DNA of 64,000 nucleotides from Escherichia coli (GTDB lineage: Bacteria; Pseudomonadota; Gammaproteobacteria; Enterobacterales; Enterobacteriaceae), in the NCBI RefSeq assembly GCF_965641715.1, contig NZ_OZ282453.1; one strand, written 5' to 3'. The notes beneath the pieces were generated by a model. It was given only the letters and a program-made list of their open reading frames with translations, made no database searches and was not told the origin of the DNA. Both the position numbers and the translations under genes were made by a program. Positions 469 through 23,447 of the stretch are shown here, in pieces (positions within the stretch are counted from its first letter, which is position 1; the number at the start of each line of letters is the position of its first letter).

Positions 469-3400
469 TTACCACTGAATACCGGCACCGAGTGCGGCGG
501 AGTATTCACCCTGGCTATTGGTACTACCTTGTAATTTGTAGACCCAACGACCATTGGCGCTCACCATCGACACACCTAAAGCAACTGCCGATTCACCGTT
601 GTAAGTACCGCCACCAATAGAGGCCATGCTGGCACCTGGAGTGTAAGCCTGCGGCAGACCGGTCATTGCCATTGCAGAAGCGATACCACCGCTCAACTTG
701 CTTTCAGTTTTAGACAGTTTGTTATCCATCTCAACCATCCGCTGATCGGTGTATTGCTTCGTTTCCTGCACGCTTTGCTTCAACTGCGCGTAGTTCACCG
801 CGTCGTTGTTGTTGACGCCAGCGGAGACGTTGCTGATACGAGTCGTACCGCCGTTGCCCCCACCGAGGGTGATATTGCTATAGTCAACAGAACCATCAGC
901 GTTGGTGTCGTAACGTACACCGCCCGCCTCAGAAGACTTCAACTGTGCCACGTTAACAGCATCGGTGTCGTTTTTACCTGCGGCTACGTTGGTGATACGA
1001 CGTTGATTAGTAGATGAGCCTACAGAGATCGTATTTTCTTCGGTTGCCACAGACCCTGTACCCAGTGCGACGCTGTTATCCGCGGCAGCAATGGAACCAG
1101 AACCAATCGCGACGCTATCTTTACCCTGCGCGCTGGCATCTACACCATCGGTATTGGTCTTGAAGTACTTGGTGCTACCGGTGGTGACGATATCGCCAAT
1201 ACCGTTTTCGATATTAGTAACGCGAGTATCCAGATTAGTGACCTGATTGTTCAGGTTAGTAATGCTCTGGGTATTCTGGGAAACCTGCGCATCCGTTACT
1301 TTCAACTGACCTACGTTGACCGCATCGGTATCCGCTGAACCAGCTGCGACGTTGGTGATCTGACGTTGACCGTCTTCACTACCAACAGAAAACTCACCTA
1401 CAGAGTTCTGCGGTGCGTCCATGTTGTAGGCGGTGTAGCCAGTCTGTGCACCACGGGTGGTCTGAGAACCGTTACCCATTGCAATACTGTTTGCATGGTT
1501 TGCGCGTGCGTTACTGCCGATAGCAATGCCGTTGATCGCATCAGCCAGAACCAGAGTGTTCAAACCGATACCAATACCTGCATTACCATTAACGACAGTT
1601 TTCGCACCCATTGCCAGCGAGTCTTCACCAACGGCCAGTGAGTCTTCTGCCGTTGAGTTGGCGTGAAAGTACTTGGTTGGCGTGGTTGCGACCGCACCAA
1701 TCGCATTCTGCAATTGACGAACCGTAACGGCGTCATGGGCTTCGGAACCATCAGCTACGTTGATGATTTGGCGGTATTTACCGTCATTACCAATTGACAA
1801 TGCACCTAGCAGTTCGCCGTCAGTGGTGTCATAACCAATCACCACGCCATTTTCCGTTACGCTAGTGTCACGAGAACCTTTGGCAATCACACGGCTGGAA
1901 ACGGAGCTGCTACCCAGCGCAATACCGGTATCAACGGTGCTATTGCTGTTCTGACCAATGGCTACGCTGCTGGCACCAGACGCGACAGCGTTATAACCTA
2001 CAGCTGTAGCGCCGACACCAGAGGCGCTTGCATCGTTAAAGGCTAAACCGTTGTCGTTAGTACGAACGTAGTTGATACCAGCGCCATTTTCTTCGATATA
2101 GGTTGCGTCGGTGTTACCAGCAAGCTGATTGATGATTTGGCTGTTCTGCTCAATCATCATATTCGTCGCATTCAACTGAGAACCGTTCACTGCATCGGTA
2201 CTGTCCTCACTAATACTGCCATTAGCGACATTAGTGATGATGCTGGCTTTACCGTCATGGCTGGCATTGTAGGCTCCTGCACCGCCATTGGCAGTCTCAT
2301 CCCACAGCAGGGCGTTATCATCAAGCGCATCCAGGGCGTCACCGACGTTGTTGTACTCGGCGTTCGCAATGGTGTAAGTCGGTGCGGTGATGGTGCCGTC
2401 AGCGTTAACTTCTGCATCACCACCCAGCGCATCAGCGATGTACTTGTTGGTGGTATACAGTTGTGAGCCGTTAATAGCATCGCTGCTGGTTGCGGAGACT
2501 GTACCGGCTGCAACATTAGTGATCTTGCTGGCGGAGTTATCTTTCCCGTGACCAGCACTGAATGCACCTTTACCATCATTGGCTGTTGCATCCCACAGCA
2601 GAGCATCATCGAGAGTGGTGTCGATGGCGTTCAGGGCATCACCGACGTTATCGTAATCAGCATTAGCAATGGTGTACGTCGGCGCAGTGATGGTGCCGTC
2701 TGCATTGATTTCGGCACCACCACCCAACGCATCTACGACGTACTTATTGGTGGTATAGAGTTGCGAGCCGTTCACAGCATCAGAGCTTGTGCTTGAAACA
2801 TCCCCGTTTGCGACATCAGTGATCACGCTTGCGTCACCATTAGTACCGTGTTTGGCACTAAATTTATCTACGGAAGCGTCCCAAAGCAGGGCATCGCCGA
2901 GAGACGTGCTAAATGAGGAGTTAATCGCAGCTAGTGCATCGCCGACGTTATAATAATTTGTTTCACCGATTTTGTAGGTTGGACCGGTAAACACACCGTC
3001 AGTATTCACAGAAGCATTGCCGCCGAAGTAGGTGGCGATATTGCTGCTTAAGTCATAAAGCTGGCTGCCGTTAATGGCATCGGAACTGGTTGCAGTGACT
3101 GCGCCGTCCAGGATATTGGTGATTTTGCTGGCGGCGTTGTTGCCATGAGCAGCCGTGAAGACACCATTGTCCTTATCCCATTTCAGCGCATCTTCACCAA
3201 GGTTAGTCACCGTCTCAGTCAGGTTAGAGATGTTGGTGGTGTTAGTGGCAATATTGGTGGTATTCGTCGCCACAGCATCGTTGGTGGTTTTCAGCTGGGA
3301 GCCGTTAACGGCATCAGTGCTGCCAGCCGTCAGGTCGGCATCTTTAACGTTGGTGATTTTGCTGGTGGCGTTGTTGCCGTGAGCTGCCGTGAATACACCA

Positions 3401-5358
3401 TTGTCCTTATCCCATTTCAGCGCATCTTCACCAAGGTTAGTCACCGTCTCAGTCAGGTTAGAGATGTTGGTGGTGTTAGTGGCAATATTGGAAGTGTTAT
3501 TGGCGATATTGGTGGTATTCGTCGCCACAGCATCGTTGGTGGTTTTCAGCTGAGAGCCGTTAACGGCATCGGTGCTGTCAGCCGTCAGGTCGGCATCTTT
3601 AACGTTGGTGATTTTGCTGGTGGCGTCGGTGCCATGAGCTGCCGTGAATACACCATTGTCCTTATCCCATTTCAGCGCATCTTCACCAAGGTTAGTCACC
3701 GTCTCAGTCAGGTTAGAGATGTTGGATGTGTTAGTGGCGATATTGGTGGTGTTGGCTGCCACGGCATCGTTGGTGGTTTTCAGCTGAGAGCCATTAACCG
3801 CGTCAGTGCTGCCAGCCGTCAGGTCGCCAGCGGTGACGTTGGTGATTTTGCTGGTGGCATCAGTACCGTGTGCGGCGCTGAATGCTGTACCCTTCCAGAG
3901 GAGGGCATCATCCTTAAGGTCGCCAACGGAATCCGTCAGGTTGGTGATATTGGTGGTGTTAGTGGCGATATTGGTGGTGTTGGTTGCCACATTATCATTG
4001 GTGGTTTTCAGCTGAGAGCCGTTAACGGCGTCTTTACTGGTAGCCGAAATATCGCCATCTTTTACATTGATGATTTTGTTTTCTGCTACGGTACTGGTAA
4101 TCGTTCCATCAGCATTTTTAACAATATAATTGGCGCTGAAAGCCCCTTTAGCTGAGTCCCAGTGCAGAGTTTCATTGTCAAGGTACTGGAGTGCTTCACC
4201 AACGTTATTGAAATTCTTTTTCTTCAGTTGAAAAGACATATCCATTATTGTTCCGTTAGTAGCAACATTTGCTCCGCCTCCCAGCCTGTCTGCTACTGAC
4301 CTACTAATGGCGTAAAGTTGTGAACCGTTAATGGCTTCTTTACTGTCCGTTGAGATTGTACCTGCCGCCATATTGACGATGCGACGCTGCGCTGACCCAG
4401 AGCCTACCGATACAACGTTGTCTTCACCTGCTGTAGAGTTTGCACCAATCGCGACGGAGTTATTCCCTCCTGCAGAGGATGAACTTCCTAATGCAAGACT
4501 GTTTGATCCAACCGCAGAACTTCCTGTACCGATCGCAATAGCATTTGCGGTTGATGCGCAGCTGTTCTGGCCTAATGCGATGGTGTTTGTGTTTGATGCT
4601 TGCGCATTTTGCCCCAAGGCAAGAGCACTTGCGCCAGTAGCCGCTGCTGTATATCCCAGGGCAACAGAACCTTCACCTGTTGAATCACTGTTTGCACCTA
4701 ATGCAAGACTGTTTTTGCCTCGAGCTTTCGCTTTAGTACCTACAGCCGTCGCATTTTCAGCGGCTTCGGTCTCAGCACCTATCGCAATGGAGTTTGCTGC
4801 ACTGGCAAGTGATTGCCTGCCTAATGCCAGAGAGTCTGCGCCGTTCGCCTTTGCAGATTTTCCCAGCACTAAAGAGTTGCTGGCAGTAGTAGCAGCTTGT
4901 GCTCCGACCCCCAGGACAACTGAATATTCTGCCAGTCCGTCGGCCCCACTACCGATTGCGATCGCTCGGTTTCCGGAAGCTTCTGCCACTTGTCCGATTG
5001 ATACCGATCTCTCTCCGGTTGCGTAGCTTTGGTAACCTAATGCAGTCGAACCAATACCTGTAGCCCAGGCGTTCGCGCCCACCGCAACTGCACCAGTCCC
5101 ATTGCCCACTGAGGACGCTCGTGCACCCTGGCCAATAGCTACCCAGACATCAGTGATTTCTGTTGGATCAGAGAATGTGCCACCATCAAGTGACGCACTG
5201 GCGTTTGCCCCAAACGACGAAAACATTCCACCCGCAACCAGGGCAGAAATTAACAGCTTACTGCGACCAGATTTCTTACCACGGCTCTTCGCTGTTTCGC
5301 TGGCAACGCTATAACTGCCCGTCGCCGGATTCCAGATGACTTTAAATATTTTGTTCAT
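469..5358 (-). CDS. upaG: Trimeric autotransporter adhesin, SadA/UpaG/EhaG family, 1629 aa
   Basis: N-terminal extended signal peptide [10 protein letters not shown]...; Ala/Gly/Ser-rich head repeats (NSLALG, NSVAIG); many neck motifs S(T)DAVNGSQL; Asn/Thr-rich coiled-coil stalk; C-terminal YadA-like anchor ending ...[10 protein letters not shown]. Symbol assigned by family and position only, allele not determined. Confidence 0.85.
3140..4110. repeat. Four near-identical tandem repeat units (about 234-255 bp, 78-85 aa each) inside the adhesin stalk, with 7-aa NTTNIAT-type sub-repeats
   Basis: The string cattgtccttatcccatttcagcgcatcttcaccaaggttagtcaccgtctcagtcaggttagagatgttgg recurs at about 3165, 3399 and 3654; the antisense ORF 3145..4155 shows the same peptide three times, confirming DNA-level identity. 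Confidence 0.75.
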
Positions 5359-18928: not shown

Positions 18929-20467
18929 ATGACCAATAATCCCCCTTCAGCACAGATTAAGCCCGGCGAGTATGGTTTCCCCCTCAAGTTAAAAAACCGC
19001 TATGACAACTTTATTGGCGGCGAATGGGTAGCCCCTGCCGATGGTGAGTATTACCAGAACCTGACGCCGGTGACCGGGCAGCTGCTGTGCGAAGTGGCGT
19101 CTTCGGGCAAACGAGACATCGATCTGGCGCTGGATGCTGCGCACAAAGTGAAAGATAAATGGGCGCACACCTCGGTGCAGGATCGCGCGGCGATTCTGTT
19201 TAAGATTGCCGATCGAATGGAACAAAACCTCGAGCTGTTAGCGACAGCTGAAACCTGGGATAACGGCAAACCCATTCGCGAAACCAGTGCTGCCGACGTG
19301 CCGCTGGCGATTGACCATTTCCGCTATTTTGCCTCGTGTATTCGGGCGCAGGAAGGCGGGATCAGTGAAGTTGATAGCGAAACCGTGGCCTATCATTTCC
19401 ATGAACCGTTAGGCGTGGTGGGGCAGATTATCCCGTGGAACTTCCCGCTGCTGATGGCGAGCTGGAAAATGGCTCCCGCGCTGGCGGCGGGCAACTGTGT
19501 GGTGCTGAAACCCGCACGTCTTACCCCGCTTTCTGTACTGCTGCTAATGGAAATTGTCGGTGATTTACTGCCGCCGGGCGTGGTGAACGTGGTCAATGGC
19601 GCAGGTGGGGAAATTGGCGAATATCTGGCGACCTCGAAACGCATCGCCAAAGTGGCGTTTACCGGCTCAACGGAAGTGGGCCAACAAATTATGCAATACG
19701 CAACGCAAAACATTATTCCGGTGACGCTGGAGCTGGGCGGTAAGTCGCCAAATATCTTCTTTGCTGATGTGATGGATGAAGAAGATGCCTTTTTCGATAA
19801 AGCGCTGGAAGGCTTTGCACTGTTTGCCTTTAACCAGGGCGAAGTTTGCACCTGTCCGAGTCGTGCCTTAGTGCAGGAGTCAATCTACGAACGCTTTATG
19901 GAACGCGCCATCCGCCGTGTCGAAAGCATTCGCAGCGGTAACCCACTCGACAGCGTGACGCAAATGGGGGCGCAGGTTTCTCACGGGCAACTGGAAACCA
20001 TCCTCAACTACATTGATATCGGTAAAAAAGAGGGCGCAGACGTGCTCACCGGCGGGCGGCGCAAGCTGCTGGAAGGCGAACTGAAAGACGGCTACTACCT
20101 TGAACCGACGATTCTGTTTGGTCAGAACAATATGCGGGTGTTCCAGGAAGAGATTTTTGGCCCGGTGCTGGCGGTGACCACCTTCAAAACGATGGAAGAA
20201 GCGCTGGAGCTGGCGAACGATACGCAATATGGCCTGGGCGCGGGCGTCTGGAGCCGCAACGGTAATCTTGCCTATAAGATGGGGCGCGGCATACAGGCAG
20301 GGCGCGTGTGGACCAACTGTTATCACGCTTACCCGGCACATGCGGCGTTTGGTGGCTACAAACAATCAGGCATTGGACGCGAAACCCACAAGATGATGCT
20401 GGAGCATTACCAGCAAACCAAGTGCCTGCTGGTGAGCTACTCAGATAAACCGTTGGGGCTGTTCTGA
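18929..20467 (+). CDS. aldB: Aldehyde dehydrogenase B, 512 aa
   Basis: ORF track frame begins at 18791; start refined to ATG 18929 ([17 protein letters not shown]) preceded by SD aaggagacg, giving the K-12 length. Confidence 0.93.
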
Positions 20468-20494
20468 TATAAGAAGCTGGTCGCATTGGGTATT

Positions 20495-20582
20495 CATTGC
20501 CTGATGCGACGCTTACGCGTCTTATCATGCCTACGGGACCTGACCGTAGGCCGGATAAGGCGTACACGCCGCATCCGGCATA
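20495..20582. repeat. REP pair (BIME) downstream of aldB
   Basis: Units gcctgatgcgacgcttacgcgtcttatcatgcctac and gtaggccggataaggcgtacacgccgcatccggc. Confidence 0.65.
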
Positions 20583-21010
20583 AACAAAGCGCACGTTGTT
20601 ACAATTTACGTTTTAAACCTACGTGCGCAATAACCCAGACTACGCCAACAGAAGTGCGTTTCTGGGGCGTGTTTTGCCAGGAGTTTAATCTCGCGTTTCG
20701 ATGGTGAGCGGGCGAACCAGGCCATAAATCACCATTGGCGTTCCGAGGCCAATCAGCAATAAACGGTAGATAATTGAAGGTTTAATACGCTTAATCTGCA
20801 TTGTGGATGTTTTACTGAAGTTATTCATTAGTTTGGCTGATAGTTCCATTATTTCAATATGATAAGCCTCGACCTGTTAAAAAGCCAGGCAGCACACTTC
20901 AGGAAGTATATAAAAAACAATATGTCGTTATATAAATAAGGAAATTGCACTGCATCATGGCATTTAATAATATGCGTTAATTGTTCATTTTTATATTCTC
21001 TGAGGGAAAT

Positions 21011-21334
21011 ATGTTCCTGGATTATTTTGCACTGGGAGTGCTTATTTTTGTATTTCTGGTGATATTCTATGGGATTATTATTTTACATGATATTCCCTAC
21101 CTGATTGCTAAAAAACGTAATCATCCTCATGCCGACGCCATTCATGTTGCTGGTTGGGTGAGTCTTTTTACGCTGCATGTTATCTGGCCATTTTTGTGGA
21201 TTTGGGCCACGCTTTACCGCCCGGAGCGGGGATGGGGAATGCAAAACCATGATTCATCCGTTATGCAACTGCAACAGCGCATTGCCGGGCTGGAGAAACA
21301 GCTCGCCGACATCAAATCCTCTTCTGCCGAGTAA
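21011..21334 (+). CDS. yiaW: DUF3302-type small membrane protein YiaW, 107 aa
   Basis: ORF track starts at a TTG (20981); ATG at 21011 gives [23 protein letters not shown]..., nearly identical at the N-terminus to YibI. Confidence 0.85.
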
Positions 21335-21339
21335 TACTT

Positions 21340-22476
21340 ATGGATTTACTGATTATTTTGACCTATGTGGCTTTTGCATGGGCAATGTTTAAGATCTTCA
21401 AAATTCCCGTAAATAAATGGACCATTCCCACAGCGGCCCTGGGTGGAATATTTATTGTCAGCGGTCTAATTCTGTTAATGAACTATAACCATCCGTATAC
21501 CTTTAAAGCGCAAAAAGCGGTTATTTCTATTCCTGTTGTCCCACAGGTGACTGGTGTGGTGATTGAAGTGACGGATAAGAAAAATACGCTGATTAAAAAA
21601 GGTGAAGTGCTATTTCGACTGGACCCGACGCGTTATCAGGCGCGGGTGGATCGGCTGATGGCGGATATCGTTACCGCAGAACATAAACAGCGGGCGTTGG
21701 GCGCAGAGTTAGATGAGATGGTGGCGAATACTCAGCAGGCAAAGGCCACGCGGGATAAATTCGCTAAAGAGTACCAGCGTTACGCACGCGGCAGCCAGGC
21801 GAAAGTAAACCCGTTTTCAGAACGCGATATTGATGTGGCACGGCAAAATTATCTGGCGCAGGAAGCCTCCGTAAAGTCATCGGCGGCGGAACAAAAACAG
21901 ATCCAGAGCCAGCTGGATAGCCTGGTGTTGGGTGAACATTCTCAAATCGCCAGCCTGAAAGCGCAGCTCGCGGAAGCAAAATATAACCTTGAGCAGACGA
22001 TAGTGCGTGCGCCGAGCGATGGTTATGTGACCCAAGTGCTGATTCGTCCGGGTACCTATGCCGCGTCGCTGCCGCTACGTCCGGTGATGGTGTTTATACC
22101 CGATCAGAAACGACAAATCGTGGCGCAGTTCCGTCAGAACTCCTTGCTGCGACTGGCTCCTGGCGACGATGCGGAAGTGGTGTTTAATGCTCTGCCAGGT
22201 AAGGTATTCAGCGGTAAGCTGGCAGCCATTAGTCCAGCCGTTCCCGGCGGAGCTTATCAGTCGACCGGCACCTTACAGACGTTAAACACAGCGCCGGGTT
22301 CAGATGGCGTTATCGCGACCATTGAACTGGATGAGCATACTGATTTGAGCGCATTACCAGACGGTATTTACGCCCAGGTGGCGGTCTACTCTGATCATTT
22401 CAGCCATGTCTCGGTGATGCGCAAAGTACTGTTACGCATGACCAGCTGGGTGCATTACCTTTATCTCGATCATTAA
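21340..22476 (+). CDS. yiaV: HlyD-family membrane-fusion-like protein YiaV, 378 aa
   Basis: Same architecture and length as YibH; C-terminus [20 protein letters not shown] is nearly identical to that of YibH. Confidence 0.88.
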
Positions 22477-23447
22477 TCTTCGCTTTCCGCCGCTTGTTCA
22501 GGCCGCAGTTGCTGCGACTGAGCAAGCTGGTGGCGAATTTCACGCAGCATTTCATCCAGCACATACTGGACCCGCCAGGGCTGGTATTCCCGTTTACGGA
22601 AGATAGCCACCAGATCCAGCCACCATTCATACGGGTGCTGAAAGCAGGGCACCAGCGTGCCGTCTTGCAGATCGCTCTGCACACTTTTGTCTGGCGCAAA
22701 CACAATCCCCAGGTGATTTCGTGCCAGCTCCAGCGCCGATTGCGTGTTATCGCAAACGTAATTTCCCTTCACGCGATAATCCCGCACCTCTTTACTCCCG
22801 GCGACGTTGAAGCGCCAGATATTCGCGTCGTCGATCATCATCGAGTCGATCAAAATACAGGAGTGATGTTCGAGTTCGTCAGGACGGCTAATGGGATGTT
22901 TCTCAAGATAGCGCTGGCTGGCATAAGCGGTTACGGCATATTGGGTAATAAAACTGGCAACCAGCGATTCATCTTTTGGTGGGGCATAGCTGATTAAAAC
23001 ATCACAATCATCAGGAAATTCGACGCCTTCATAAAAGGCATTACGCTCAAGATTGCAGGTTTTTAGCGATAAGGTGATATCACCGATATCTTTAATTTTA
23101 TCGATTACATGTTTGGATAAATAGGTAATTATGCCGGTTGGGGCGTAGATGGTGACCCGACCACGTTTCTCATGCTTATAATCTGCAATAAAATTATTAA
23201 GCTGCTCGTTTCTGTCCAGCATGTCGTTGATGTACGGTAACAGCGCGGTACCAAAAGGTGTGAGCATCAGCTGCCGGGTGGTTCGGTCAAAGACTTTTAA
23301 ACCCACTTTTGATTCAAAATCAGCAAGGTATTTGCTGACGTTGGCCTGTGCGATGCCAAGTACAGTCGCGGCATGGCTGATATTTTCACTGGCAGCGATT
23401 ACCGAGATAATTTTTAACTCCCGGTACTTAAGTTGTAATTTTGTCAT
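22473..23447 (-). CDS. yiaU: LysR-family transcriptional regulator YiaU, 324 aa
   Basis: N-terminal LysR helix-turn-helix; convergent with yiaV, stop codons overlapping. Confidence 0.88.

Follow-up and report, generated by a model that had tools for sequence, protein, structure and literature searches.

The 47-codon open reading frame (ORF) between aldB and yiaW of Escherichia coli is very likely the relic of a longer gene, at best vestigial and probably non-functional. It starts at the same codon and lies at the same position as a gene for a 104-residue membrane protein, from which it is distinguished by the clean loss of one internal block of 171 nt, and the deletion alleles sampled vary under relaxed constraint. 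The ORF was analysed within a stretch of 64,000 nt of E. coli DNA (contig NZ_OZ282453.1 of assembly GCF_965641715.1), which is referred to here as the window. The original prediction had regarded the ORF, with low confidence, as a candidate gene of a membrane mini-protein. A coding origin in a membrane protein was indeed found, but a dedicated and conserved mini-protein gene was not. The features of the window on which the analysis rests are:

18929-20467, plus strand: aldB, gene flanking the spacer
20457-20629, 3′ of aldB: REP/BIME-like palindromic repeats, multicopy, with three sub-threshold Rfam naRNA4 matches
20580-20628, minus strand: terminator-like hairpin 3′ of the ORF on the same strand, GCGCACGU...ACGUGCGC followed by UUUGUUUAU
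20685-20828, minus strand: 47-codon ORF with stop codon, an in-frame fusion of residues 1-38 and 96-104 of the ancestral 104-aa gene
20715-20722, minus strand: deletion junction, the lone surviving copy of GCCTGGTT (codons G36-L37-V38), located by alignment to intact alleles
20829-20849, minus strand: possible 5′ extension in frame, MELSAKL, from an upstream ATG, which would give 54 aa
21012-21335, plus strand: yiaW, gene flanking the spacer
21340-22476, plus strand: yiaV
22473-23447, minus strand: yiaU

The ORF sits inside the 544-nt spacer between aldB and yiaW and corresponds to nucleotides 3,754,611-3,754,754 on the plus strand of MG1655; its coordinates and translation are exactly those predicted. 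The proposed transmembrane (TM) helix coincides with a hydrophobic stretch at residues 19-37 (Kyte-Doolittle 19-residue maximum of 1.71), where a single transmembrane segment is plausible on the basis of the amino acid sequence. The weak SD ascribed to the ORF could not be recovered, as no SD-like sequence is present within 15 nt of the ATG. An SD is absent from Escherichia alleles, intact or deleted, and present in Franconibacter (AGGAG) and C. amalonaticus (AAGGGA). Because the intact Escherichia alleles also do without it, the absence of an SD alone is no proof of lost expression. K-12 has GTG in place of the upstream ATG at 20849, and in strain 50579417 a TAA comes after this ATG; the 54-aa extension is thus not conserved. 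Both PGAP and the homologues of other genera begin at the MNN/MSK methionine.

The description of the ORF as unannotated holds for the curated MG1655 record (NC_000913.3) but not elsewhere. Most sampled RefSeq E. coli genomes carry it as a 'hypothetical protein' called by PGAP (WP_001066080.1, WP_024192092.1, WP_001066082.1 and others), with a CDS at equivalent coordinates in homologous genomes, and NCBI nr holds the ORF protein on more than 1000 contigs. The start assigned by PGAP varies among these calls, giving 47, 51 or 67 aa, and in O157:H7 genomes (e.g. strain 611) the intact 47-codon ORF is skipped although near-identical ORFs are called elsewhere. No mention of the ORF was found in the searchable literature, nor is the locus mentioned in the PIRT-Seq supplements.

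A TBLASTN comparison of yiaW loci, in which each species was represented by a single genome, identified full-length homologues. The start codon of the window ORF begins an ORF of 104 aa in both E. whittamii and Escherichia sp. E1V33. Pseudocitrobacter vendiensis and Citrobacter sp. R56 encode proteins of 103 aa, which are 51-55% identical to the E. whittamii protein from end to end (E about 1e-36), and the homologues of Citrobacter amalonaticus/farmeri and of Franconibacter comprise 104 and 103 aa, respectively. The gene order is likewise preserved. In C. amalonaticus the gene lies between yiaW and aldB, divergent from the former and convergent with the latter as in E. coli; in Franconibacter, where yiaWVU is absent from the locus, it lies between avtA and aldB and is again convergent with aldB. 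E. coli itself retains an intact gene at this site in strains 6409 and EC42405, again in convergent orientation to the 3′ end of aldB. The window ORF therefore occupies the position orthologous to that in 6409, EC42405, C. amalonaticus and Franconibacter. The 47-aa form was found in E. coli and Shigella only, its relatives elsewhere having 103-104 aa, and the 47-aa sequence, used as query against 5.8 billion proteins, retrieved E. coli entries only. The TBLASTN comparison proposed along with the original prediction hence does show a conserved frame, but it is the frame of a longer, 103-104-aa gene that encodes two TM helices.

The closest counterparts of the ORF product are the 104-aa proteins WP_001064340.1 and WP_001064341.1, which occur in rare E. 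coli, E. whittamii and cryptic Escherichia, and whose genes share locus, orientation and start codon with the window ORF. Residues 1-38 and 96-104 of the WP_001064340.1 type are collinear with the 47-aa sequence and 87-94% identical within Escherichia, whereas residues 39-95 are missing. The lost part comprises the loop and helix 2 with G46, N53, G59 and G88-L89-W90, and thereby four of the six most conserved residues (G46, G59, G88 and L89).

When its DNA is aligned with the alleles of E. whittamii, Escherichia sp. E1V33 and the E. coli strains 6409 and EC42405, the 47-codon ORF lacks a single clean block of 171 nt or 57 codons of the long gene (144 versus 315 nt). In the intact alleles this block is bounded by two 8-nt direct repeats GCCTGGTT, which are spaced 171 nt apart and embedded in the contexts TAC-GGC-CTG-GTT and TAC-AGC-CTG-GTT, encoding YGLV and YSLV. 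With both repeats in one codon phase, a deletion between them inevitably preserves the frame, and selection is not needed to explain why it is open. The polarity of the change is likewise clear: an origin of the 104-aa form by insertion would require outgroups devoid of the 171-nt segment, which is contradicted by its presence in all outgroup genera. The gap of 171 nt is identical in all sampled deletion alleles, which also lack 12 nt behind the stop codon, a second and linked deletion at a site where the full-length alleles contain the block GGGCAGCTTCYG (window about 20660-20672, minus strand). The sharing of both features favours, without proving, a single deletion event with later point mutation or recombination, and some doubt is left by differences among the deletion alleles at the junction (GGC/GGT and CGC/TGC). 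Retention of one repeat copy between the endpoints of 8-bp repeats and subsequent drift, frameshifts and IS insertions are also the marks of pseudogenes arising from direct-repeat-mediated deletion. Unlike in other cases of this kind, the loss is in frame, so that an intact-looking ORF persists and PGAP calls a gene.

The parent protein is a member of a widespread family of two-helix membrane proteins without a Pfam or NCBIfam model or a known function. A profile built from five full-length proteins was searched against 1.84 billion representatives and retrieved 267 clusters (50% identity) at E ≤1e-3 and 74 at E ≤1e-10, including sequences of the 47-aa type. The family members are about 70-260 aa long, mostly 95-130, match mostly from end to end, and occur in Proteobacteria, Cyanobacteria, Verrucomicrobia, Planctomycetes, other phyla and metagenomes; those bearing a name are all called "hypothetical". 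Both parts of the window ORF align in frame with the full-length proteins, residues 1-38 directly and residues 39-47 to positions 96-104. They share with the family an N-terminal motif (K/R-hydrophobic ... S-I-Y/F-K/R-L ... G-L) and a C-terminal R-P-L. The ORF represents only a fragment of the family domain. In an alignment of 106 sequences G59 is invariant and G27, G46, G88 and L89 are conserved in at least 90%; an alignment of 32 sequences adds N53 and W90 at this level. Conserved W-N, G and G-L-W positions recur across the family. With the exception of G27, all of these best-conserved residues fall into the deleted segment and are absent from the window ORF. A confident AF2 model of the full-length protein calculated from the 106-sequence alignment (pLDDT 81) displays long helices at residues 17-44 and 62-95 connected by a short β-hairpin loop, of which the window ORF would retain helix 1 only.

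Scans of the 54-aa and 104-aa proteins and of 32 family members against Pfam and NCBIfam yielded sub-threshold noise only. The name DUF3566, which UniRef attaches to the Franconibacter homologue, was rejected, as neither this protein nor any of the 32 members matches the DUF3566 model at E-values up to 10. A Foldseek search against the PDB gave no significant match (best E-value of 2). The gene neighbourhoods of four distant family members have no partner gene in common, which makes a functional inference impossible.

The synonymous-site bias expected of a conserved mini-protein gene was assessed on 11 distinct deletion alleles, drawn evenly down the similarity ranking, and on the intact alleles of E. 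coli, E1V33 and E. whittamii. The intact gene is clearly constrained, with dN/dS values of 0.09-0.15 both overall and within the 47 retained codons, the latter differing by 4-5 nonsynonymous versus 10-12 synonymous changes. In the deletion alleles pN/pS amounts to about 0.65-0.9 (0.93 when summed over all pairs). A hand count gave about 14 nonsynonymous and 7 synonymous events against 7 and 19 in the intact alleles, so that no purifying selection is detectable in this small sample of about 21 substitutions, four of which (codons 3-5) may be one complex event. Fisher's exact test indicated a difference between the two classes (p = 0.019 for 14:8 versus 7:19; p = 0.025 versus 4:12), with the reservation that some of the variation may predate the deletion or stem from recombination. 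The substitutions in the deletion alleles include G27V, T30S/I, V33M, V38I, R39C and D47E. G27V, found in the O157:H7 and O145 alleles, affects a near-invariant position of the family, and the N-terminus is rewritten among the alleles as NNFS, NNSS, NKNR or IKNR. No variation occurs at residues 11-26 (QIKRIKPSIIYRLLLI) in the deletion alleles sampled. Between the window and K-12 the ORF is 95.8% identical, compared to 98.1% for aldB, 97.5% for yiaW, 98.7% for yiaV and 98.6% for the REP-containing spacer.

The frequency of the alleles was determined in 5,426 complete E. coli genomes. The deletion allele is carried by about 3,800 of them (ca. 70%), most with an open, ATG-started ORF; for 141 nt at the divergence found in E. 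coli, an open frame is expected under neutrality as well. An intact 315-nt gene is found in merely 28 genomes, annotated as WP_001064340.1 or WP_001064341.1 and present with or without hicAB between the gene and aldB. The remaining genomes, about 1,600 or 30%, gave no match to the gene. In both loci of this class that were examined (L102 and L103) yiaWVU is absent and the last ~29 nt of the gene alone are kept beside hicB. Escherichia sp. MOD1-EC7003 has suffered an independent deletion of the 5′ part of the gene. The deletion allele, MOD1-EC7003 and the near-total loss together imply that damage to the gene, or its loss, has occurred on at least three separate occasions in Escherichia. Further decay is visible in an 11-nt frameshift deletion in one sampled genome (L097) and in frameshifted, stop-loss and IS-fused versions of the ORF in the protein database.

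Fusions by read-through from IS ends enter the ORF at a minimum of nine junctions within window positions of about 20780-20830, i.e. in the first ~17 codons. Five of the IS-fusion proteins carry the peptide ...VSWQHH, which we take to be the left end of IS1. This pattern suggests that the AT-rich, H-NS-marked spacer is a hot spot of IS insertion. By analogy with other H-NS-silenced operons, such insertions might de-repress yiaWV. Some strains have a toxin-antitoxin pair, hicA-hicB, inserted between aldB and the gene (e.g. EC42405, locus L085, positions 2812-3424), with hicB overlapping the stop codon of the gene by 4 nt. In AR13438 and JNEC-KY174, the two examined genomes without a match to the gene, hicAB abuts the genes of a GH127 glycoside hydrolase and an MFS transporter, and in AR13438 a type I restriction endonuclease gene is inserted after aldB.

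We propose the following history of the locus. An ancestral Escherichia gene, situated between yiaW and aldB and convergent with aldB, would have encoded an inner-membrane protein of 104 residues with two long TM helices connected by a short β-hairpin loop. In the ancestry of most E. coli and Shigella, 171 bp between the 8-bp direct repeats GCCTGGTT were lost, presumably by replication slippage or short-homology recombination, either of which fits the pattern of the deletion. Helix 1 (residues 1-38) was thereby fused to the last nine residues, and the product, if made at all, would be a single-pass peptide devoid of the loop and helix 2. After the deletion the sequence appears to have drifted near the neutral rate, and the remnant has probably no function.

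Alternatively, the remnant might be transcribed and translated and work as a single-pass membrane mini-protein, having partly kept the old function or gained a new one. Many E. coli proteins of up to 50 aa modulate other membrane proteins, and the validated small membrane proteins AcrZ, KdpF and MgtS resemble the ORF product in their size, single predicted TM helix and charged flank. In favour of such a role, most carriers have an intact, ATG-started ORF, the plausible TM segment, the positive N-terminal flank (KRIK) and the terminator-like hairpin are all kept, the core of residues 11-26 is unchanged in the sampled alleles, and the intact Escherichia alleles start at the same SD-less codon. 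However, AcrZ, KdpF and MgtS are conserved as short ORFs across genera, under purifying selection and with evidence of translation, whereas the window ORF is short in E. coli and Shigella only and its constraint is relaxed. A pN/pS of about 0.65-0.9 compared to 0.1 for the intact gene, nonsynonymous changes at G27, T30, V33, V38, R39 and D47 besides the rewritten N-terminus, and conservation below that of the flanking genes all speak against a working product, as do the circulating frameshift and IS-disrupted alleles, the ~30% of E. coli genomes without a match and the failure to find the short form outside E. coli and Shigella. We therefore consider a functional mini-protein unlikely. Continued translation of the remnant, and its retention as a single-pass membrane micro-protein, is distinctly improbable. 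If this were true, it would provide a natural example of a larger membrane protein giving rise, through an internal deletion, to a small protein, which perhaps has the neighbouring YiaW/YiaV system as partner or acts as a fragment of its lost parent.

Two further explanations have far less to recommend them. A small hydrophobic protein resembling type I toxins would account for the 5′ IS insertions by the harm of its expression; it would agree with the short and hydrophobic product, the at least nine different IS junctions and the hicAB pair adjoining the gene in some strains. Its ancestor, however, is a widespread 104-aa membrane protein of housekeeping type belonging to no toxin family, no antisense RNA or Rfam match was found over the ORF, the ORF is intact in most strains, and the IS clustering is equally well explained by an AT-rich spacer marked by H-NS (PMC3946193), so that a toxin is very improbable. 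As to a chance ORF in AT- and T-rich intergenic DNA without coding history, ORFs of 47 codons or more arise in 83% of the composition-matched sequences obtained by first-order Markov resampling of the 544-nt spacer, and ATG-started ones in 60%. The ORF alone is thus not beyond chance, and it also lacks a Pfam or NCBIfam match. Yet both of its parts align in frame with a 103-104-aa protein across genera, within a family of 267 clusters, and synteny is conserved; homology and synteny refute a chance origin, to which we assign practically no weight. The explanation as an internally deleted gene relic is hence retained.

The finding as such is ordinary and leaves the understanding of E. coli biology unchanged; its main value lies in a correction of annotation and a warning for small-ORF screens. 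An ORF that is open, hydrophobic and frame-conserved in TBLASTN can nevertheless be the truncated relic of a longer gene, which calls for caution in small-protein discovery, and frame conservation needs to be checked alongside the ORF length in relatives. A more fitting label for the 47-aa PGAP entries (e.g. WP_001066080.1) would be that of an internally deleted pseudogene belonging to the WP_001064340.1 family. The parent family of 267 clusters may interest curators because it has no Pfam or NCBIfam model.

The spacer of the window is 99.4% identical to that of strain Res13-Sevr-PER07-33 and 95.8% identical to that of K-12. The original prediction had described it as otherwise devoid of assigned function, which does not hold. 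It contains REP-like repeats, a terminator-like hairpin and the promoter of yiaWV together with an H-NS mark (PMC3946193). The REP-like sequence matches several other sites per genome, and in an Rfam scan of 19500-22000 it scored 33-42 bits with naRNA4 compared to a gathering score of 59.5; these sub-threshold matches are all located outside the ORF, over which no Rfam family was detected. A 73-codon ORF on the plus strand (20486-20707) crosses the REP-like repeats and is almost certainly spurious. The terminator-like hairpin (MFE of -38.3 kcal/mol for a 116-nt stretch, z = -2.75) is followed by a U-run, is also found 3′ of the full-length alleles and may serve as terminator of the gene. A second 'terminator', called inside the ORF at 20753-20734, was rejected for want of biological support. 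The constitutive σ70 promoter of yiaWV (CAGACA-17-TATAAA) has been placed in the aldB-yiaW spacer, which was marked there as H-NS-associated (PMC3946193), and maps to positions 20886-20914 on the plus strand of the window. No promoter-like site was found in a promoter scan.

Some observations concern the neighbouring genes. Escherichia genomes contain a second DUF3302 gene, presumably yibI, whose product is 73-76% identical to YiaW, and E. albertii is represented among the YiaW matches through this paralogue only. A YiaW-like protein of 71% identity is encoded on a 433-nt contig of very low coverage in the assembly of Myxococcus llanfairpwll..., which looks like enterobacterial contamination. 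In E. coli 2013C-3277, aldB is annotated as frameshifted.
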